From positions 27,777-91,776 of the forward strand of contig JAWKQJ010000007.1 in NCBI GenBank assembly GCA_041390205.1: DNA of 64,000 nucleotides, given 5' to 3'. Below the pieces are notes generated by a model. The model ran no database searches and was not told where the DNA came from. It saw nothing but the letters and a program-made list of their open reading frames with translations. This document shows, one piece after another, positions 8,198-60,406 of this stretch. How positions within the stretch are numbered: the first letter of the stretch is position 1; every line of letters starts with the position of its first letter. The DNA comes from Gemmatimonadales bacterium. Lineage in GTDB: Bacteria; Gemmatimonadota; Gemmatimonadetes; Gemmatimonadales; GWC2-71-9. Made by a program: the position numbers and the translations under genes.

Positions 8198-9232
8198 GTG
8201 CGGATAGCCGTCGCATTCGACACCCCCAACGCCCGCTGGACGCCCGACGACCATCGTCTCCAGATGGAGACGGAGCTGTCCGGCGAGACGCCGCTCGAAG
8301 CCGAGATGGAGTACCAGGTGGCCGGGGCGCTGCTCGAGCGCGGCCACGAGGTGCTGTTGATCGGCTTCCGCGACGATCCCAAGGTCCTGCTCGACCACTG
8401 CGCCGCCTTCAAGCCCGACGTCGTGGTCAACTGCGCCGAGTCCTTCCGCGGCGACGCCACGCTCGACCACCTCTGTCCCACCCTGCTCGACGCCACCGCC
8501 TATCGCTACACCGGCTCCGCCCCGCTGGCCCTCCAGGTCACCCGGGACAAGGCGATGAGCAAGAAGATCCTCGCCTTCCATGGCATCCAGGTGCCCGCCT
8601 TCGTGGTCTACCGGACCCGTGACGAGGTGACCGAGCCGCCGCTCGACTACCCGCTGATCGTCAAGCCGCTCGCGGCCGACGCCTCCGCCGGGATCGCCAT
8701 GGCCTCGGTCGTGGCCGACTTTCAGGCGCTCAAGGAGCGGGTCGCCTTCATCCACCAGCGGTTCCGGCAACCCGCGATCGCCGAGCAGTTCATCCCCGGC
8801 CGGGAGCTCTACGCCGGGATTCTCGGCAACGACGAGCGGCTCCAGGTGCTCCCGCTGGTGGAGCTGGCCTTCGACAAGGAGAAGACGGAGCCGGAGGAGC
8901 GGATCGCCACCCAGAGCACCAAGTGGGGCGACGCCTACCGGCGGCGGCGGGGCATCAAGTACGTCTTCGCCCGGCCCGTCTCGGCGCTGGCGAGGGAGCG
9001 GATCGAATCGGTCTGTCGGGCGGCCGGACGCGCGCTCTGGCTCCGCGACTACGCCCGGATCGACTTCCGGCTCACCGACGACGACCAGGTCTGGGTGCTC
9101 GAGGCCAACGCCAACCCCTTCATCAGCAAGGGGCACGAGATGGCCAACGCGGCCGCGAAGATCGACCTGCCCTACCCCAGGTTCATCGAGCGGATCGTGA
9201 ACGAGGAGGTCGCCCGCTACGAGCGCGCCTGA
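8198..9232 (+). CDS. ATP-grasp protein of the D-alanine--D-alanine ligase family (paralog, not the housekeeping ddl)
   Basis: In-frame GTG at 8198 inside ORF 7235-9232. ATP-grasp signatures DKAMSKKILAFHGIQVP, PLIVKP, EQFIPGRELY, ARIDFRL...WVLEANANP. Confidence 0.8.
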   Translation: MRIAVAFDTPNARWTPDDHRLQMETELSGETPLEAEMEYQVAGALLERGHEVLLIGFRDDPKVLLDHCAAFKPDVVVNCAESFRGDATLDHLCPTLLDATAYRYTGSAPLALQVTRDKAMSKKILAFHGIQVPAFVVYRTRDEVTEPPLDYPLIVKPLAADASAGIAMASVVADFQALKERVAFIHQRFRQPAIAEQFIPGRELYAGILGNDERLQVLPLVELAFDKEKTEPEERIATQSTKWGDAYRRRRGIKYVFARPVSALARERIESVCRAAGRALWLRDYARIDFRLTDDDQVWVLEANANPFISKGHEMANAAAKIDLPYPRFIERIVNEEVARYERA

Positions 9233-33350: not shown

Positions 33351-35051
33351 CTACCGCTTCGCCTTCCGCTGGGGGGCTCCCCGGGCGGCGGGCTTGCCCC
33401 CCGTCTTGAGCCGTTCCTTCGCCACGAACCACTGCTGCGGAATGCTCGCGATGTTGATGGTCGCGTAGTACAAGTTGAGCCCCGACGCGAACTTGAAGAA
33501 CAGCACGACCATCATCAGCGGCATCACGTAGAGCATCACCTTCATCTGCGGGTTCGGCGGCAGGCCAATCTGGCCCACCTTCGTCACCGCGAACATGGAG
33601 ACGCCCATCGCGATCGGCGTGATGAACAGGGGATCGGGTCTGGCCAGATCCGGCAGCCAGAGGAACGAGGCGCCTCGAAGCTCGATCGAGTTCTGAAAGA
33701 CGAAGAAGAGGGCGATCAGGATCGGCCAGGGCAGGAGCAGGGGCCAACACCCGCTGAACGGGTTGACGTTGTGCTCCTTGTAGACCTTGAACATCTCCTG
33801 CTGGAGCTTCTGAGGCTCGTTCTGGTGCTTCTCCTGCAGCTCTTTCAGGATCGGCTGGATCGCCTGCATCTGCATCCCGGCCCGCATCGCCCGCTGATTG
33901 AGCGGCCAGAGCACGACCCGGATCAGGATGCCGAAGAGGATCAGGCCCAGACCGTAGGCCAGCCCCAGCCGCTCGTGGAACCAGACCAGCAGCCAGCGGG
34001 CGCCCACGGCGACCGGGCGGATGATCGGTCGGAGCCACGCCCAACCATACGGATTGATGTCGTCGAAGTCGTGACCGATGGCCTGCAGGCGCGGGTACTC
34101 CATCGGTCCGAGGTAGAGCTCGTAGCCGAAATCCCCCGACGCCTGCACCGGCAAGCTGGTCCAGATGGTGGCCGCCTCCGGGGTCCGGTGTACCTGGTCG
34201 GTGGCGACGACATAGGTCCCGCCGATTCCGCCGTGGCCGGCGCGGGTCGAGTCGAGCGCGAGGAGCGCGGCCGCGAAGTACTTCGACTTGACCGCGACCC
34301 ACTCGAATGGACCGGTCAGCGACTGCGGCTCGCCGACGTCGAGCTTCGAGAAGTGGGTGAGCTCGGAGCGCGACGCCTTGGTCACGATCCCGAGCTCTCG
34401 CGCGTGCTCGACGCTGTCGGCCTCGGTGTTCCTGAGCCCCGGTCCCATCCCGACCAGGAGCGTCCCGCCGTTCGGCCCGATCCCGGTCACCCGCCCCGAG
34501 ACCGCGATCCGATACTCGTCCGGCAGGAAGCGGTAGGTGAGCTCGACCCCGAGCTCTCCTTCCCCACCCCTGAAGGTGAGGCTGGAGGGCCCGGTCACTT
34601 CGAGCGAGCGGGCCGAAGGGCTCAGGGTCCACTTGGAGATCCGAACGGTGTCCCGGCCGACCAACACCGCGGCCGCCAGGAGCTCGGTCTCGGGAGGAAG
34701 GATCTGGGCCGCCCGATCCGGCTCGTCGGGCCGCATCGACTTGTAGTTGATGAGCGTCGCGCCCACCAGCTGCCCACCCTGCGTGGAGAATTGGTACCGG
34801 TAGAGCGAGGAGCTCACCGTGATGGTGTCAGCCCGGGCCCTCGCGGGAAGAGCCGCTACGGGCGGCGGCGCGGAGTCCTCGACCACCGCTGGCGACCCCG
34901 CCGGGCCGACCACCGCCGACGGCGCGGGCGGCTCGACCACCTGCCCGGAGGTCGCGGCCGCTGAGGTCGGCGGCGGCCGCTTGATGAACAGCGACGGGAG
35001 TATGACTACGGCCACCATCAACGCGATGGCCAAGAAGAAGCGACGATCCAT
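33351..35051 (-). CDS. yidC: Membrane protein insertase YidC
   Basis: Large periplasmic domain, then a conserved core (GWAWLRPIIRP..., MQAIQPILKELQEKH, NVNPFSGCWPLLLPWPILIALF). Confidence 0.95.
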   Translation of the reverse strand: MDRRFFLAIALMVAVVILPSLFIKRPPPTSAAATSGQVVEPPAPSAVVGPAGSPAVVEDSAPPPVAALPARARADTITVSSSLYRYQFSTQGGQLVGATLINYKSMRPDEPDRAAQILPPETELLAAAVLVGRDTVRISKWTLSPSARSLEVTGPSSLTFRGGEGELGVELTYRFLPDEYRIAVSGRVTGIGPNGGTLLVGMGPGLRNTEADSVEHARELGIVTKASRSELTHFSKLDVGEPQSLTGPFEWVAVKSKYFAAALLALDSTRAGHGGIGGTYVVATDQVHRTPEAATIWTSLPVQASGDFGYELYLGPMEYPRLQAIGHDFDDINPYGWAWLRPIIRPVAVGARWLLVWFHERLGLAYGLGLILFGILIRVVLWPLNQRAMRAGMQMQAIQPILKELQEKHQNEPQKLQQEMFKVYKEHNVNPFSGCWPLLLPWPILIALFFVFQNSIELRGASFLWLPDLARPDPLFITPIAMGVSMFAVTKVGQIGLPPNPQMKVMLYVMPLMMVVLFFKFASGLNLYYATINIASIPQQWFVAKERLKTGGKPAARGAPQRKAKR

Positions 35052-35077
35052 TTTCTATTGCCGACTCGGTGGAGGTC

Positions 35078-35317
35078 TCACGGCACCGGATCGTAACCAC
35101 CCGAGTGGAACGGGTGGCACTTGATCAGCCGCCGGAACCCCAGCCACGAGCCCTTGAGCAGTCCATACCGATCGATCGCCTCGAGCGTGTACTGCGAACA
35201 GCTCGGAACGAATCGACACCGGGGAGGCAAGGCCGGGGACACGAATCGCTGGTACCCTCGGATCAGCAGCATCCCGATCCGCCGCGGCGCCCCGACCACC
35301 ATCCCGACGACGTTCAC
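35078..35317 (-). CDS. yidD: Membrane protein insertion efficiency factor YidD
   Basis: [44 protein letters not shown]. The GTG at 35317 overlaps the rnpA stop (GTGA). Alternative ATG at 35302. Confidence 0.85.
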
Positions 35318-35664
35318 CCGCCAGCGCCGAGATCGGCCAGCCACGTGGCCACGTCGGCCCTCAACTCGGCGAACGATGCCCCGTAGGCCTGCCGCCTGGC
35401 CCTGATCACGACGTCCAGGGGACCGGCCTCCGAAGCGAGGCGGCGAGCCAGTTCCCTGAGTCGCCGCCGCAAACGATTGCGGGCCACCGCGGTCGACTGG
35501 AACTTGGGTACGATCAATCCCAGTCGCAGGTGACCCGCTTCCCTTCGCCTCCATGCCACCTCGATGAAACCCAGCCGCCGGCGGTGACCCCGCTCCAGGA
35601 CCCGACGTACCTCGTCGGTCCGCGCGAGCCGGCCCGCCCGCTCGGTCCCTCGACCCGCCGTCAA
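35314..35664 (-). CDS. rnpA: Ribonuclease P protein component
   Basis: C-terminal part of ORF 35314-37638: [15 protein letters not shown]...[27 protein letters not shown] at 35664 overlaps the rpmH stop (TTGA). Start choice inferred. Confidence 0.75.
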
Positions 35665-35822
35665 CGACCTCCGTGCTTCGAGGCCAACTTGACGGTCAAC
35701 TGCTTCCGGCCCTTTTTCCGCCGGCGAGACAACACGGCCCGACCCCATCGCGTCGCCATCCGCGCGCGGAACCCATGACGGTTCACGCGCTTGCGATTTC
35801 GCGGGCGGAACGTAGGCTGCAT
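35661..35822 (-). CDS. rpmH: 50S ribosomal protein L34
   Basis: Not in the ORF track (53 aa). My translation is [53 protein letters not shown], which matches the L34 consensus over the first ~44 aa. Confidence 0.9.
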
Positions 35823-35855
35823 CTGCTCCCTCAAATCCTTGGTAATGAGCCCGAA

Positions 35856-35885
35856 AAGCTAGCTCCGACATGGGGTTGCGGTCAA
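35856..35885 (-). promoter_or_regulatory. Candidate rpmH promoter TTGACC-N18-TAGCTT
   Basis: -35 is ggtcaa at 35880-35885 (plus strand). -10 is aagcta at 35856-35861, 33 nt upstream of the rpmH ATG. Confidence 0.4.
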
Positions 35886-35887
35886 GG

Positions 35888-35916
35888 TTGACTTTTCCAC
35901 ACAGGGGTCGTAGGTT
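35888..35916 (+). promoter_or_regulatory. Candidate dnaA promoter TTGACT-N17-TAGGTT with an embedded DnaA box TTTTCCACA (35893-35901)
   Basis: ttgact 35888-35893, taggtt 35911-35916. The box matches TTATCCACA at 8/9 positions and overlaps the -35/spacer. Confidence 0.45.
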
Positions 35917-35952
35917 CGCTGCCCCTTCGACGGCCCCCCTCTGGTTCGAGGC

Positions 35953-37344
35953 GTGATGCAGCTCTCTCCGAAAGAGGCGTGGAAGCGCATTCTCGATGAG
36001 GCCCGTCGAGAGCTTCCGGAACAAGCCGTGACCACGTGGCTTGCCCCAGCCGAGCCCCGGGGAATCGAGGACGGCAGCTTCATTCTCGAGCTGCCGGACG
36101 AGTTCGCCGTCAAGTGGAACCAGGCCAAGCACGCCGGTCTGCTCACCCGACTCGCCCAACAGGTCGTCGGTCAGAACACCGAAGTGGCCTTCCGGGTGTC
36201 GGGAGAGCGGCTCCAGCGGCCGCAGATCGACTTCTTCGTCGAGCAGCCCGCCGAGGAGCCCCAGCCGGCCGCCCCGAAGGTGACCCCTTCGCCCCAGCCC
36301 CTGAACGAGCGCTACACCTTCGACTCGTTCGTGATCGGCAAGTCCAACGAGCTCGCCGCCGCCGCCGCGCATGCCGTGGCCGAAGCACCCGGGAAGACCT
36401 ACAACCCGCTCTTCATCTACGGCGGAACCGGACTCGGGAAGACCCACCTGATGCAGGCGATCGCCCACGCGGTCCAGCTCAAGGCCCCGGCCACCCGGGT
36501 GGTCTACGTCGGCGCCGAGCATTTCATCAACGAGGTGATCGAAGGGATCCATGGGCGGACCATGCCGCAGCTCCGGCGGCGGTATCGGACCGAAGTGGAC
36601 CTCTTCCTGGTCGACGACATCCACTTCCTGGAGGGCAAGGAGGCCACCCAGGAGGAGTTCTTCCATACCTTCAACACCCTCTACGAGGCCCAGAAGCAGA
36701 TCGTCCTGACCTCCGACAGGCCACCCAAGGAGCTGCCCGGCCTCGAGAGCCGCCTGGTGAGCCGTTTCGGCTGGGGCATGGTGGCCGACATCGGCCAGCC
36801 CGATCTCGAGCACCGGATCGCCATTCTCCGGAAGAAGCAGGAGCAGGACCACCTCGAGACCACCATTCCCGACGACGTCCTGGCCTTCATGGCCGAGCAC
36901 GTCTACTCGAACGTCCGGGAGCTCGAGGGCTGCATCATCAAGCTGCTGCTCTATGCCTCGCTCCGGCACCGTGAGATCACCATCGAGCTCGCCCGCGAGG
37001 CGCTGGCCGATCGGATCCGGCCCGGACCGGCCGCGACGCCCGGCAAGCCCAAGGCGCTCCCCACCATCGACCGCGTCCAGGACGTGGTCGCCCGGCAGTG
37101 GGGCGTGACCCCCGAAGGGCTCCGCTCGAAAGCCCGCATCAAGAGCCTGACCGTGCCCCGCCAGATCGCGATGTACCTGGCCCGGGAGGTCCTCAACATG
37201 CAGCTCGTGGAGATCGGCCAGGCCTTCGGCGGACGCGATCATTCGACCGTGATCCACAGCGTCGACAAGGTGCAGCGGCAGCTGGCCCGCGACCGCTCCT
37301 TCCGTGAGCGCGTCGAATCCGCGCGGGCCCAACTGGGCACCTGA
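35953..37344 (+). CDS. dnaA: Chromosomal replication initiator protein DnaA
   Basis: Walker A GGTGLGKTHL, box VII/sensor motifs, C-terminal DNA-binding domain (...FGGRDHSTVIHSVDKV). GTG at 35953 or ATG at 35956. Confidence 0.95.
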   Translation: MMQLSPKEAWKRILDEARRELPEQAVTTWLAPAEPRGIEDGSFILELPDEFAVKWNQAKHAGLLTRLAQQVVGQNTEVAFRVSGERLQRPQIDFFVEQPAEEPQPAAPKVTPSPQPLNERYTFDSFVIGKSNELAAAAAHAVAEAPGKTYNPLFIYGGTGLGKTHLMQAIAHAVQLKAPATRVVYVGAEHFINEVIEGIHGRTMPQLRRRYRTEVDLFLVDDIHFLEGKEATQEEFFHTFNTLYEAQKQIVLTSDRPPKELPGLESRLVSRFGWGMVADIGQPDLEHRIAILRKKQEQDHLETTIPDDVLAFMAEHVYSNVRELEGCIIKLLLYASLRHREITIELAREALADRIRPGPAATPGKPKALPTIDRVQDVVARQWGVTPEGLRSKARIKSLTVPRQIAMYLAREVLNMQLVEIGQAFGGRDHSTVIHSVDKVQRQLARDRSFRERVESARAQLGT

Positions 37345-37486
37345 TGGAGCCGAGGCCGCTAACCCCTGAGTCGACGGCCACTCCGGCGGTCGGCGCATGG
37401 GCGGCCTCCCCGTCCCGCCGAGCCGCCGCCCCCGACCGGCGCTTCCCGACCCAATCAGGGGCGATGGCAGCCCTGGAGCTGACGGC

Positions 37487-38596
37487 ATGAAGTTCACGAT
37501 CACCCGCGAGAAGCTGCACGAGGGGCTCGGCGCGGTCACCGGCATCGTCCCCACCAAGACGACGTTGCCGGTGCTCTCCAACATCCTGGTCGAGAGCACC
37601 GGCGGCGGGATCCGACTCTCCGGCACCGACCTCGACATCGCGGTCTCGACCGTCGTCCCGGCCCAGGTGGATCAGGAGGGCGCCACTACCCTGCCCGCCC
37701 GGAAGCTCGCCGAGATCGTCCGGGAGCTGCCCAGCGCGGCCATTCGATTCGCCAGCTCAGGCGAGCAGCGGGTCCAGATCGAGTGTGGCCGCTCCCGCTT
37801 CAAGCTGCTCGGCTTGTCCCGTGACGAGTTCCCGTCTCTTCCGGCGGTCCGATTCGAGGACGGTTGGTCGCTCGCGGCCAAGGACCTCCAGAAGCTGATC
37901 GGCCACGTGGCCTTCGCCGCGAGCACCGAGGAGAGCCGGCCGATCCTGAACGGCATCCTCTGGGAGCTGCGCCAGGATCGGATGCGGATGGTCGCGACCA
38001 ATGGCCACCGGTTGGCGCGGATGGACATCCCGGTGAAAGGCGCCGGGGGTGAGGCCGTCCTGATCGTGCCCCCCAAAGCCCTCGAGCAGATCCGCCGGCT
38101 CTTCCGGCCCGAGGACCAGATCGAGATCGCCAGGAGCGACAACCACTTGGGCTTCCGCTCCGCCGAGACCCAGGTCTATACCCGGCTGATCGAGGGACCG
38201 TACCCCAACTACGAGCCGGGCATTCCGCGCGACAACGACAAGATCGTCACCGTCGATCGCGCCGCCTTCGCCGGCGCGATCCGTCGCATGAGCATCGTGG
38301 CCAGCGACCAGACCCACCGGGTCCGGCTGGCCTTCACCAACGGCGCCTGCAAGCTCTCGGTCACCACCCCCGACCTCGGCGACGCCCAGGAAGAAATCGC
38401 CGTCTCCTACGACGGCGACCCGCTCGAGATCGGCTTCAACGCGTCGTACCTCCTCGAGATCCTCAAGTTCATGCCGACCGACGAGGTGCGCCTCGCGTTC
38501 AAGGCGCCCGAGCGGGCCGCCACGATGGAGCCGGTCGGCTGGGACGACCCCGCGAGCTATCTGACCCTGGTGATGCCGTTGCGCTTGCTCGCCTGA
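37487..38596 (+). CDS. dnaN: DNA polymerase III beta sliding clamp, copy 1 (divergent pocket motif YPNYEPGIP)
   Basis: ATG at 37487. 369 aa: MKFTITREKL..., ATNGHRLA, LVMPLRLLA. Confidence 0.9.
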   Translation: MKFTITREKLHEGLGAVTGIVPTKTTLPVLSNILVESTGGGIRLSGTDLDIAVSTVVPAQVDQEGATTLPARKLAEIVRELPSAAIRFASSGEQRVQIECGRSRFKLLGLSRDEFPSLPAVRFEDGWSLAAKDLQKLIGHVAFAASTEESRPILNGILWELRQDRMRMVATNGHRLARMDIPVKGAGGEAVLIVPPKALEQIRRLFRPEDQIEIARSDNHLGFRSAETQVYTRLIEGPYPNYEPGIPRDNDKIVTVDRAAFAGAIRRMSIVASDQTHRVRLAFTNGACKLSVTTPDLGDAQEEIAVSYDGDPLEIGFNASYLLEILKFMPTDEVRLAFKAPERAATMEPVGWDDPASYLTLVMPLRLLA

Positions 38597-38696
38597 TGGC
38601 GTCGCGACCAGCCCGGACCGCCACGCTGGTCATCCGGTGGGCAGCGGAATCGACATCCCCCATTTGCCCGAGCGCTCCGTGAGCGGCGTCAGGCCT

Positions 38697-38931
38697 CGTG
38701 GATAGCTCGACGGTCGATGACGACAACCGCGTTGGGAACTTGTGGAAGAGCGGGAGGCCCGGGCCCGGCGGGCTCGGTTTCCCAGACTGCCAACACCGCC
38801 CGGCGCGTCGGCGGGTGAGATAAGCGCTCTGCCCTCCAGCGCTTGGCGGACCCGTCCACAATCCCACGACTCTACGATTACTACGGTTTCTAAATTAAGA
38901 TTTGCAGTCATAGAAAAGAGCATGGGCAAAA
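38697..38931. promoter_or_regulatory. Candidate oriC core/DUE or dnaN-2 promoter: three DnaA-box-like 9-mers plus an AT-rich tract
   Basis: CGTGGATAG 38697-38705, TGTGGAAGA 38741-38749 and CCGTCCACA 38852-38860 match the box consensus at 6-7 of 9 positions and keep the TCCAC core. 38871-38930 is 21/60 G+C (35%) by my count. Confidence 0.4.
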
Positions 38932-38947
38932 CCCCGGAGCGGACCGC

Positions 38948-40057
38948 ATGAAGTTCACGATCACCCGTGAGAAGCTGCACGAAGGACTCGGTGCAGTTAC
39001 CGCAAGCGTCCCCACCAAGACGACGCTGCCGGTGCTCTCCAACATCCTGGTCGAGAGCACCGGTGACGGGATCCGACTCTCCGGCACCGATCTCGACATC
39101 GCCGTCTCGATGGTGGTTCCCGCGCAGGTCGATCAGGAAGGCGCGACCACCTTACCGGCCCGGAAGCTCGCCGAGATCGTCCGGGAGCTGCCCAGCTCGG
39201 CCATTCGGTTTGCCAGCTCCGGTGAGCAGCGGGTTCAAATCGAGTGTGGTCGCTCGCGCTTCAAGTTGCTCGGCTTGTCGCGTGACGAGTTCCCCGCGTT
39301 TCCGGCGGTCCAGTTCGACGGTGGCTGGACCGTCGCCGCGAAGGACCTGCAGAAGCTGATCGGCCACGTGGCTTTCGCGGCGAGCACCGAGGAGAGCCGG
39401 CCGATCCTGAACGGCGTGCTGTGGGAGCTCCGTCCGGATCGGATGCGGATGGTCGCGACCAACGGTCACCGGCTGGCGCGCATGGACGTTCCGGTGAAGG
39501 GCGCTGGGGGCCAGGCCGACCTGATCGTGCCCCCCAAGGCGCTCGAGCAGATCCGCCGGCTCTTCCGGCCCGAGGACGAGATCGAGATCGCCAGGAGCGA
39601 CAACCACCTGGGGTTCCGAGCCGCGGGCACCCAGGTGTTCACCAGGCTGATCGAGGGGCCCTACCCCAACTACGAGCAGGTGATCCCGCGGGAGAACGAC
39701 AAGATCGTCACGGTCGACCGGGGCGCGTTCACCGCGGCGATCCGCCGGATGAGCATCGTCGCCAGCGACCAGACCCACCGGATCCGGCTCGCCTTCACCA
39801 GCGGTTCCTGCAAGCTCTCCGTCACGACCCCCGACCTCGGCGATGCCCAGGAGGAGATGACGGTCTCCTACGACGGCGATCCCCTCGAGATCGGCTTCAA
39901 CGCTTCCTATCTGCTCGAAGTGCTGAAGTTCATGCCGACGGACGAAGTGCGGATGACCTTCAAGGCGCCGGAGCGCGCCACGACCTGCGAGCCGGTCGGC
40001 TGGGACGACCCGGCGAGCTATCTGTCGCTGGTGATGCCGCTTCGTCTGCTGGACTGA
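38948..40057 (+). CDS. dnaN: DNA polymerase III beta sliding clamp, copy 2 (canonical YPNYEQVIP)
   Basis: 369 aa, colinear with copy 1 with no indels and 39 substitutions by manual alignment. Confidence 0.9.
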   Translation: MKFTITREKLHEGLGAVTASVPTKTTLPVLSNILVESTGDGIRLSGTDLDIAVSMVVPAQVDQEGATTLPARKLAEIVRELPSSAIRFASSGEQRVQIECGRSRFKLLGLSRDEFPAFPAVQFDGGWTVAAKDLQKLIGHVAFAASTEESRPILNGVLWELRPDRMRMVATNGHRLARMDVPVKGAGGQADLIVPPKALEQIRRLFRPEDEIEIARSDNHLGFRAAGTQVFTRLIEGPYPNYEQVIPRENDKIVTVDRGAFTAAIRRMSIVASDQTHRIRLAFTSGSCKLSVTTPDLGDAQEEMTVSYDGDPLEIGFNASYLLEVLKFMPTDEVRMTFKAPERATTCEPVGWDDPASYLSLVMPLRLLD

Positions 40058-40063
40058 GGACGG

Positions 40064-40100
40064 GGCTCGGCTCGATTACTCGGTGAGGCCGAGCCGAGCC
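40064..40100. terminator. 11-bp inverted repeat between convergent dnaN-2 and mtgA
   Basis: ggctcggctcg 40064-40074 pairs with cgagccgagcc 40090-40100. 15-nt loop, no clear U-tract. It overlaps the mtgA 3' end. Confidence 0.3.
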
Positions 40101-40990
40101 GCCGCGATCGATCCTTCCTGCGACATTCGCTTCAGAATCAGCTGCTGCCGCCATCGGATTCGCCCCGAGCGGTAGCCCGGGTTGGCCGTGAGCGGTGCCG
40201 GCAGCGTCGCCGCCAGAGCCGCCGACTGGTCTCGCGAGAGCCGCTCGGCGGGGCGGCGATAGTAGGTCTGGCTCGCCGCCTCGACACCCCAGACCTCGGG
40301 ACCCAGCTCGACCACGTTGACGTAGAGCTCGAGGATCCGCCGCTTGCCCAGCGCCCACTCGAGACGGTACGCGGTGACCGCCTCCTTGAGCTTTCGGAAC
40401 GGGTTCCTGGACGGTGAGAGATAGAGGTTCTTGGCGAGCTGCTGGGTGATCGTGCTCGCCCCCCGGATCTCCCGCCGATTGCTCCACGCGTCCTGCAGCG
40501 CGCGCCAGAGCTCGGCCCGGTCGCGCTCGTCTCCGATGGCGAAGTCCGCCCGGCGATATCCCAGCGCCTCGCGCACCGCCTGGTAGTCGATCCCGCCATG
40601 CTCGAAGAACCGGTGGTCCTCCGCGACGAGGACCGCCGCGAAGACGTCCGGGTCGATCCGCTCGGCACGAACCGGCTGATACCGGCGCTCGAGCGGGGCC
40701 CCGTCCTGACTTTCCCGGCGCCGCTGGGGGTGGCTCGCGAGCTGGCTGGCCTGGCGATCCCGCAACGCCATGAACGCGGTTTCGCCGGGCCAGGCCCACC
40801 GGTACCAGATCGGTGGGGGCCAGACGGCAAAGAGCCATAGCAGGCCGAGGCCGAATCCAACCAGCGTGAGACGGCGGAACCACCAGAATACCGACCGACT
40901 CTTGGTGGTAGCCTGTGCTGCTACCTCACCGGGCGACTGCGGAGGCGCTTGGCCCGACGGCCGCTCCTGCGGGTCGGGCCTGTCGGTCAC
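40076..40990 (-). CDS. mtgA: Monofunctional peptidoglycan glycosyltransferase (GT51)
   Basis: VAEDHRFFEHGGID, GASTITQQLAKNLYLS, RKLKEAVTAYRLE, ILELYVNVVELG. Confidence 0.85.
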   Translation of the reverse strand: MTDRPDPQERPSGQAPPQSPGEVAAQATTKSRSVFWWFRRLTLVGFGLGLLWLFAVWPPPIWYRWAWPGETAFMALRDRQASQLASHPQRRRESQDGAPLERRYQPVRAERIDPDVFAAVLVAEDHRFFEHGGIDYQAVREALGYRRADFAIGDERDRAELWRALQDAWSNRREIRGASTITQQLAKNLYLSPSRNPFRKLKEAVTAYRLEWALGKRRILELYVNVVELGPEVWGVEAASQTYYRRPAERLSRDQSAALAATLPAPLTANPGYRSGRIRWRQQLILKRMSQEGSIAAARLGLTE

Positions 40991-41772
40991 TCAACCACCG
41001 AGATCTTTGTCTCACGCGTGATCTTGACCGGAATCGGCGCTGGCAGGGCCGGGGCGCTGATCGTCGCGTCGGCCTTGCCGGACGTGCTCCCGCCCAGATA
41101 GCGGCCGCCGGACGAGACGAAGAAGGTCCGGGTCGCGGTCTCCTCGGTGGAGATGTCCATCGCGCCGAGTCCGGGGTTCTGGATGGTTCCAGTGCCCTTG
41201 CTCGTCACGGTGGCGTCGATCCGCTGGGCGCTCCCGCCGCCGAACTGCTCCTTGCCACCGGCGGTGTAGGCGGTGACGACCACCGAACTCATCTCCTGGG
41301 AGGAGGTCTTGCTCTGCACCGCGGTGGTGTCGACCCACTGCGCGCCGCTCTGGAGAGCGGCCCGGATTCGCGGGTGGAAGGTGAGGATGCTGGTCTTGAG
41401 CTGCCCTACCAGGTCCGATTGCTCGTCGGAGACTCCGCTCACGGTGGCTTGCCCGTCCTTGGACAGGAATCCGTGGAGCCAGGCGCCCTTGGCGCTGTCG
41501 AGCACGGCCCGGGGCGGAGTGCCCACGCCGGAGGCGTCGACCGAGTCGATCACCACGTGCATCGCCTTGCCGCCGGCCGAGTCGGTCAGCGTAACCGTGA
41601 ACAGCACCGTCTGATTGACCGTGTTGCGCTGCTCGGCCTGACCCACGACCGAGAGATCGACGACCTGCTCGATCGACGCATCCATCCGGTACTTCGTGAC
41701 CATTGGCGCCGAGCTGACGGCAGCGGAGACGGCGGCACCCAAGCCCAGAACCAGCAACCCGCGAATCAACAT
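40987..41772 (-). CDS. Hypothetical secreted protein
   Basis: Signal-peptide-like start MLIRGLLVLGLGAAVSAAVS. Ser/Thr/Gly-rich beta-type composition. 4-nt overlap with mtgA. No family recognised. Confidence 0.55.
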   Translation of the reverse strand: MLIRGLLVLGLGAAVSAAVSSAPMVTKYRMDASIEQVVDLSVVGQAEQRNTVNQTVLFTVTLTDSAGGKAMHVVIDSVDASGVGTPPRAVLDSAKGAWLHGFLSKDGQATVSGVSDEQSDLVGQLKTSILTFHPRIRAALQSGAQWVDTTAVQSKTSSQEMSSVVVTAYTAGGKEQFGGGSAQRIDATVTSKGTGTIQNPGLGAMDISTEETATRTFFVSSGGRYLGGSTSGKADATISAPALPAPIPVKITRETKISVVE

Positions 41773-60377: not shown

Positions 60378-60406
60378 TTGACAATTCCGACAATTTCACT
60401 TAGATT
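60378..60406 (+). promoter_or_regulatory. Candidate suf operon promoter TTGACA-N17-TAGATT with an internal direct repeat GACAATT x2
   Basis: ttgaca 60378-60383, tagatt 60401-60406, gacaatt at 60380-60386 and 60389-60395. Confidence 0.45.

Follow-up and report, generated by a model that had tools for sequence, protein, structure and literature searches.

The window analysed here, a stretch of 64,000 nt (G000:C7:27777-91776), comes from G000, a Gemmatimonadales metagenome-assembled genome (MAG) of 5.2 Mb in 138 contigs, with 70.8% G+C and ~74% complete. It contains a dnaA gene (35953-37344, plus strand) encoding 463 amino acids and 69–98% identical to the dnaA of relatives, which is preceded by rnpA and rpmH on the minus strand and followed by two tandem dnaN genes on the plus strand. 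The first one, dnaN1 (37487-38596, 369 amino acids), is the faster-evolving clamp paralogue and begins after a spacer of 142 nt (37345-37486); the second, dnaN2 (38948-40057), is the conservative copy and is separated from dnaN1 by 351 nt (38597-38947). A convergent gene follows from position 40076, 3' of dnaN2. This tandem arrangement was restricted to three genomes, G000, G003 and G008, with a single dnaN in 19 of the 22 genomes of the genus, and it represents 3 of about 440 Gemmatimonadales genomes. Among 401 genomes sampled from the order we did not find any further tandem pair, the apparent double dnaN corresponding to split genes or distant paralogues (this tally includes two unpublished genomes, G101 and G224, on which no claim rests).

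Automatic origin finders search the dnaA-dnaN spacer, which at this locus is empty of origin features. As the original prediction had it, the dnaA-dnaN1 spacer is GC-rich (76.8% G+C) and carries no DnaA-box core (TCCAC or GTGGA), and we detected neither trios nor an AT tract between 37345 and 37486. G000 and G003 share 80% identity over it, and a profile search limited its likeness to the ancestral spacer of the order (see below) to the last ~22 nt before the ATG, that is, the ribosome-binding region.

The dnaN1-dnaN2 spacer starts with a little conserved filler (38597-38716), which contains the box-like 9-mer CGTGGATAG in minus orientation (38697-38705). The rest of it (38717-38947, plus strand) corresponds to the ancestral Gemmatimonadales dnaA-dnaN spacer and is our proposed oriC. 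It comprises a candidate upstream DnaA box, TGTGGAAGA (38741-38749, minus strand); a conserved block, TTTCCCAGACTGCCAACA (38778-38795, plus strand), identical in G000 and G003 and possibly a weak DnaA box; and two tandem candidate proximal DnaA boxes on the plus strand (38852-38869), namely CCGTCCACA (38852-38860) and the degenerate ATCCCACGA (38861-38869). Starting 11 nt past the box, there is a series of DnaA-trio-like repeats (CTA CGA TTA CTA CGG TTT CTA, 38872-38892, plus strand; 3'-GAT GCT AAT GAT GCC AAA GAT-5' on the bottom strand), and an AT-rich tract extends over 38871-38930 as the proposed DNA unwinding element. The three 9-mers had already been noticed in the original prediction and, as claimed, keep the TCCAC core, with scores of 7, 7 and 6 of 9 positions (38697-38705, 38741-38749 and 38852-38860, respectively). 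The tract, described there as the most AT-rich stretch, has indeed 35% G+C, and the 60-nt minimum of the whole 64 kb lies at 38858-38917 (35%); regions as AT-rich over 60 nt were found only 9 times across the 5.2 Mb assembly. The number of weak boxes in the 351-nt spacer, three versus 0.44 expected (Poisson P about 0.01), should be read together with the fact that six other 351-nt stretches of the window, several of them coding, hold three or four comparable ones. The three weak boxes are unremarkable by themselves; their significance comes from their conservation in relatives.

Within the AT tract we also observed the arm GCAGTCATAG (38904-38913). A GTAGTA/GTAGTC arm is conserved in relatives ~20–25 nt 3' of the trios (alignment columns ~100–107) and is the inverted complement of the CTA repeats; it could correspond to opposite-strand trios, a -10-like element or a loader site. 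RNAalifold detected no conserved pair in 40 aligned spacers, and the single-strand fold of 38840-38947 was no better than those of shuffled sequences (z -0.41), so that a conserved hairpin or terminator in the spacer was rejected. An Rfam scan of 35000-41000 yielded only two sub-threshold chance matches, none of them within the spacer, which, added to the absence of conserved pairing and unusual stability, makes an RNA element unlikely.

Comparison with relatives gave the spacer its identity. In those with a single dnaN, the dnaA-dnaN spacer measures about 220–250 nt (~230) and has a fixed layout. Phased TGTGG(A/G) boxes come right after dnaA and are followed by a conserved TTCCCC..ACA block; next, there is a TCCACA box with another, degenerate one behind it, and a short bridge rich in G+C; period-3 repeats (of CTA CTA CTG CTA CTA type), 30–40 nt of AT-rich DNA and a ribosome-binding site complete the spacer. 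In a MAFFT alignment, the 3' 230 nt of the dnaN1-dnaN2 spacer matched this whole ancestral spacer block for block, TGTGGAAGA aligning with the third phased TGTGG(A/G) box and TTTCCCAGACTGCCAACA being the counterpart of TTCCCCGCTGTACACA. An nhmmer profile of 18 single-dnaN spacers hit the same region (E 2.4e-30, envelope from 38717, alignment 38738-39006), so the comparison of spacers advised in the original prediction showed that 38717-38947 is homologous to the ancestral spacer in its entirety. Part of the latter is a module that we recognized in 79 dnaA-dnaN spacers, with the TCCACA box 82–105 nt ahead of the dnaN ATG and, after it, CTA-type trios and a tract of 20–42% G+C. The C/A/C/A positions in the core of the proximal box are invariant across 40 aligned spacers, and the box-to-trio spacing, 11 nt in G000, is 11–12 nt in all 53 Gemmatimonadales spacers scored. 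When a box-trio-AT profile from which the window's sequence had been left out was searched against the 5.2 Mb assembly, it gave a single full-length match, at 38851-38909 (E 0.017), the next-best one being only 16 nt long (E 1.4); another origin-like site could sit in the missing part of this ~74%-complete assembly. Identity between G000 and G003 increases along the spacer, from 55% (38597-38690) to 72% (38691-38760), 82% (38761-38845) and 95% (38846-38947), with a dS of 0.38 for their orthologous dnaN1. The 95% identity of the box, trios and AT region versus 55% in the adjacent filler shows ongoing constraint. In addition, the downstream neighbour of dnaN2 is the gene that follows the single dnaN of relatives. 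Having kept both the ancestral upstream spacer and this downstream gene, dnaN2 holds the ancestral position on its two sides.

The order, strand and spacing of the box, bridge, trios and AT tract match those of the basal unwinding system (BUS) of dnaA-dnaN origins, said to have been described by Richardson in 2016 and 2019, and this match leads to an origin reading. We consider it probable, from sequence comparison, that 38717-38947 is the core of the chromosomal oriC, descended from a Gemmatimonadales-wide dnaA-dnaN origin and displaced by a local duplication of dnaN. By analogy with the Bacillus subtilis system, DnaA would bind the upstream boxes as well as the proximal tandem pair (38852-38869), then oligomerise on the bottom-strand 3'-GAT-5'-type trios that start 11 nt downstream (38872 onward), and the oligomer would open the adjoining tract of 35% G+C so that the helicase can be loaded. 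That DnaA binds and unwinds this spacer and that replication fires from it are predictions based on likeness with that model. As in the BUS origins (B. subtilis incC, Clostridioides difficile oriC2 and the module predicted in Gemmatimonas aurantiaca), the G000 module is located immediately upstream of a dnaN gene, its tandem boxes have the TCCACA orientation on the dnaA-to-dnaN strand, and a short G+C-rich bridge leads to trios that start 11 nt downstream of the first box, read CTA on the top strand (3'-GAT-5' on the bottom one) and are followed by an AT-rich tract. It differs from them in being parted from dnaA by a whole extra dnaN (1.6 kb), in a proximal box with three mismatches to the Escherichia coli consensus, and in that two of its five first trios are CGN, without a central A.

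Two published cases are especially close. In G. aurantiaca T-27 a module was predicted at genome positions 1656-1689, with the top strand TTGTACACA AGTCCACA TCCT CTG CTG CTA CTA (Pelliciari et al. 2021; PMC8287927 and its supplement); it is the same element as the G000 spacer module, on the same strand and in the same order. The C. difficile oriC2 trio, 5'-CACCTACTACTATTACTACTATGA, also on the same strand and in the same order, lies upstream of an unwinding element that a P1 nuclease assay had demonstrated (PMC7561715). A single unwinding module (box, trios at 11–12 nt and AT tract) is conserved across the order, which extends a published prediction for one genome to about 80 species-level genomes. 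The probable origin described here belongs to a known type and is unusual in its position; it does not amount to a new kind of system.

The published search rule demands at least three consecutive 3'-NAN-5' trios and, no more than 16 bp away from them, a DnaA box with two mismatches at most to TTATCCACA (or to a species-specific box); the commonest trio is GAT, box-trio spacing peaks at 10–13 bp, and deviant trios were expected by the rule's own authors (PMC8287927). The 11 nt of G000 fall within this range, with the box oriented towards the trios, and an AT-rich element stands beside them, with 35% G+C over 60 nt in a genome of 70.8% G+C. The spacer is, moreover, orthologous to the module-bearing spacers of relatives, as judged from the profile matches above, and it is close to dnaA and dnaN at a GC-skew switch, the resolution of which is about 20 kb. 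The proximal box CCGTCCACA retains an intact TCCACA core and has three mismatches to TTATCCACA, the E. coli consensus, one more than the rule allows. Orthologous boxes of relatives have one to three mismatches (four in 1 of 53), with two or fewer in 23 of the 53. A lineage-specific nnRTCCACA box, which is putative, would satisfy the rule; at the origin, members of the order apparently rely on a box of this type, and in the dnaA promoter on a stronger one, TTTTCCACA. As for the trios, five of the seven in G000 have a central A and the longest run is two, short of the three required. Runs of three to eight occur in 42 of the 53 relatives, yet both thresholds are strictly passed by only 19 of the 53 Gemmatimonadales spacers, and CGA trios are present also in single-dnaN members of the genus. 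The spacer would thus work like, and appears to descend from, a BUS-type origin, without being a textbook member by the letter of the program.

The box TTTTCCACA (35893-35901), of high-affinity type, lies between the hexamers of the dnaA promoter, TTGACT-N17-TAGGTT (35888-35916, plus strand). It is the best box of the locus, and 68 of 71 Gemmatimonadales loci have it 60–68 nt ahead of the dnaA start, likely reflecting a conserved autoregulation by DnaA; it possibly acts also as a distal origin box, and it shows which strong box is preferred in this lineage. The original prediction, which had presented the dnaN1-dnaN2 spacer as the only origin-like sequence, overlooked it. The origin reading itself agrees with homology and skew, whereas this spacer is not the only one to bear a DnaA box. 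The strong promoter motif of the lineage (TTGAC-N16-19-TAGnTT), to which the dnaA promoter conforms, was found exactly three times in the window, versus none in 100 shuffles, at 35856-35885 (minus strand), 35888-35916 (plus) and 60378-60406 (plus), upstream of rpmH, dnaA and suf genes, respectively. The motif is absent from the dnaN1-dnaN2 spacer. A generic sigma-70 scan of 35000-41000 did not retrieve any promoter, and terminator-like matches in this region were located only within genes.

The cumulative GC skew of contig C7 falls to about window position 40000, remains flat to about 62000 and then rises. The flat zone, ~22 kb of near-zero skew (40000-62000), lies directly 3' of dnaN2, so that skew alone permits an origin anywhere within it. 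G006, of the same genus, and G026, of the same order, display clean V-shaped skew minima within 10–30 kb of dnaA-dnaN. The flat-skew zone is downstream of dnaN in G006 and upstream of dnaA in G026, dnaA-dnaN being the shared edge. Cumulative skew, which the original prediction proposed to compute over the full replicon, places the turn at dnaA-dnaN in this contig and in the two relatives, albeit with a resolution of only about 20 kb. Gene-strand bias near the locus gave no such signal, many plus-strand genes being found on both sides.

How did the origin come to lie between two clamp genes? The dnaN tree grouped the paralogues by lineage, (G008 N1, N2) and (G000 N2, (G000 N1, G003 N1)), which rejects a horizontal origin of either copy from outside the genus. 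One of the two scenarios initially put forward, in which dnaN2 would have come in on a cassette carrying its own promoter, is rejected, given that each dnaN copy has the other as its nearest relative and that the lineage promoter motif is absent from the spacer. In G008, the ~110 nt that follow the dnaN1 stop codon (G008:C9, about 8530-8640 of the locus) hold a decayed version of the last ~125 nt of its own dnaA (local alignment z 25.9), and a complete ancestral spacer comes next; the nhmmer match (model positions 118–537, E 4e-50) runs unbroken from within dnaA through the spacer into dnaN2. The duplicated unit therefore took in both the 3' end of dnaA and the origin spacer, and G008 had at first two adjacent spacers. 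The locus probably arose by tandem duplication of a unit made of the dnaA 3' end, the spacer and dnaN, with subsequent loss or erosion of the dnaA-proximal spacer copy. The other initial scenario, insertion of dnaN1 ahead of an ancestral oriC-dnaN2 unit, described the outcome correctly, since the ancestral spacer and downstream gene were kept, whereas the dnaA relic of G008 makes a plain insertion improbable. What remains between dnaA and dnaN1 (58–61 nt in G008, 142 nt in G000) lacks origin features and had no significant homology with the ancestral spacer in either genome.

For G000 and G003, the path of duplication and loss is extrapolated from G008. The only dnaA-like match in the G000 filler is the 15-nt TCCGTGAGCGGCGTC, at the expected place (z 1.9), and the filler (38597-38716) is possibly a decayed relic of the duplicated dnaA 3' end. 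Its similarity to the dnaA 3' end was not significant in G000 or G003, where the profile search did not detect a relic either, and neither was that of the G000 filler to the DNA downstream of dnaN2. In the dnaA tree, G008, G017 and G000+G003 form a polytomy. The two G008 paralogues have a mosaic identity profile (73–98%), compatible with gene conversion. Together with the clustering of the paralogues within lineages, these data fit either a single duplication with gene conversion afterwards or two separate duplications.

Both dnaN copies are under purifying selection (omega about 0.1), and non-synonymous divergence (dN) from outgroups is higher for dnaN1 in the two lineages. Among 29 single-copy and dnaN2 genes compared, 27 share the segment YP(N/P)YEQVIP without variation (39662-39688 in the G000 dnaN2). 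In dnaN1 (38201-38227, residues 239–247), it reads YPNYEPGIP in G000 and G003, and in G008 YPPLEVLDKLL replaces the motif. Remodelling of this motif, together with the higher dN, points to an altered partner binding by the extra clamp. The same dnaN1 segment is remodelled and the dnaA-proximal origin copy is missing in both lineages (G000/G003 and G008). That a tandem clamp duplication straddling the origin is adaptive rather than accidental is a tentative idea that we regard as unlikely; if it were true, a specialised second clamp would be co-transcribed with dnaA and separated by oriC from the housekeeping clamp, and the locus would be a natural example of selection acting against two origins side by side.

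The features of the spacer might alternatively be explained by transcriptional control, the module acting mainly as promoter and 5' leader of dnaN, in which the DnaA boxes would control clamp expression, while unwinding would take place elsewhere, e.g., in the flat-skew zone or upstream of dnaA. The tract is directly upstream of dnaN2 and its ribosome-binding site and contains a weak promoter-like match (ACGACT-N19-TAAATT, 8/12, with the -10 TAAATT at 38891), the conserved TAGTA-like arm 3' of the AT tract might represent a -10-like element, and skew cannot place the origin more finely than about 20 kb. We nevertheless find this explanation clearly improbable. The promoter motif of the lineage, present three times in the window with none expected, does not occur in the spacer, and the sigma-70 scan was empty throughout 35000-41000. 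Furthermore, conservation is highest in the period-3 CTA repeats at 11–12 nt from the TCCACA box, which are the signature of an unwinding module and not that of a promoter, and the same module was independently predicted as the origin in G. aurantiaca. Promoter and origin functions are, in any case, compatible, and a modest dnaN2 promoter possibly exists inside the origin, which would not contradict the origin reading.

The element might also be a relic of an origin that is losing its function, initiation having moved, or come to depend on other elements, after the duplication. G000, G003 and G008 have indeed fewer canonical trios (CTA CGA TTA CTA CGG) and a weaker box (3–4 mismatches) than most of the order. 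However, the 95% identity that G000 and G003 maintain over the box, trios and AT tract, versus 55% in the filler, is a sign of ongoing constraint. CGA trios are found as well in single-dnaN members of the genus, and the profile search did not reveal any other origin-like site in the assembly, all of which makes loss of function a very improbable explanation. Still lower, and in practice negligible, is the probability that the tandem dnaN is an artefact of assembly in which the dnaN genes of two strains were joined. Although G000 is a 138-contig MAG, 74% complete, and the G003 contig breaks inside dnaN2, the same layout with a related spacer appears in three independent MAGs, the copies differ by 14% of their nucleotides (dS 0.54, omega 0.10), the junction DNA is unique, and the dnaA relic of G008 is explained only by a real duplication.

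An origin region with a tandem duplication has been reported in Mycobacterium bovis BCG Pasteur, in which DU1, of about 30 kb, has kept two oriC copies (Brosch et al. 2000, PMC2448323). The G000 locus resembles it in this respect, but the unit duplicated here measures about 1.5 kb (the dnaA 3' end, spacer and dnaN), a single copy of the spacer is left, and the two dnaN genes have accumulated differences since then while remaining under purifying selection. A limited literature search retrieved no published origin with a tandem dnaN copy on each side. The origin reading places a likely origin in an uncultured Gemmatimonadales genome, and the locus can be viewed as a natural experiment in which two adjacent origins, at least in G008, gave way to one origin detached from dnaA and two diverging clamp genes. 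This layout is also relevant to the study of clamp paralogues. Extra dnaN paralogues are known elsewhere in bacteria, where a second clamp gene is likewise kept under purifying selection. Within the order, members of another family encode a distant second dnaN (G283:C26:51143-52279, G357:C14:147542-148741 and G152:C74:32650-33726); unlike the pair in G000, these genes have only 37–48% identity to dnaN2 and are located on other contigs, away from the origin.
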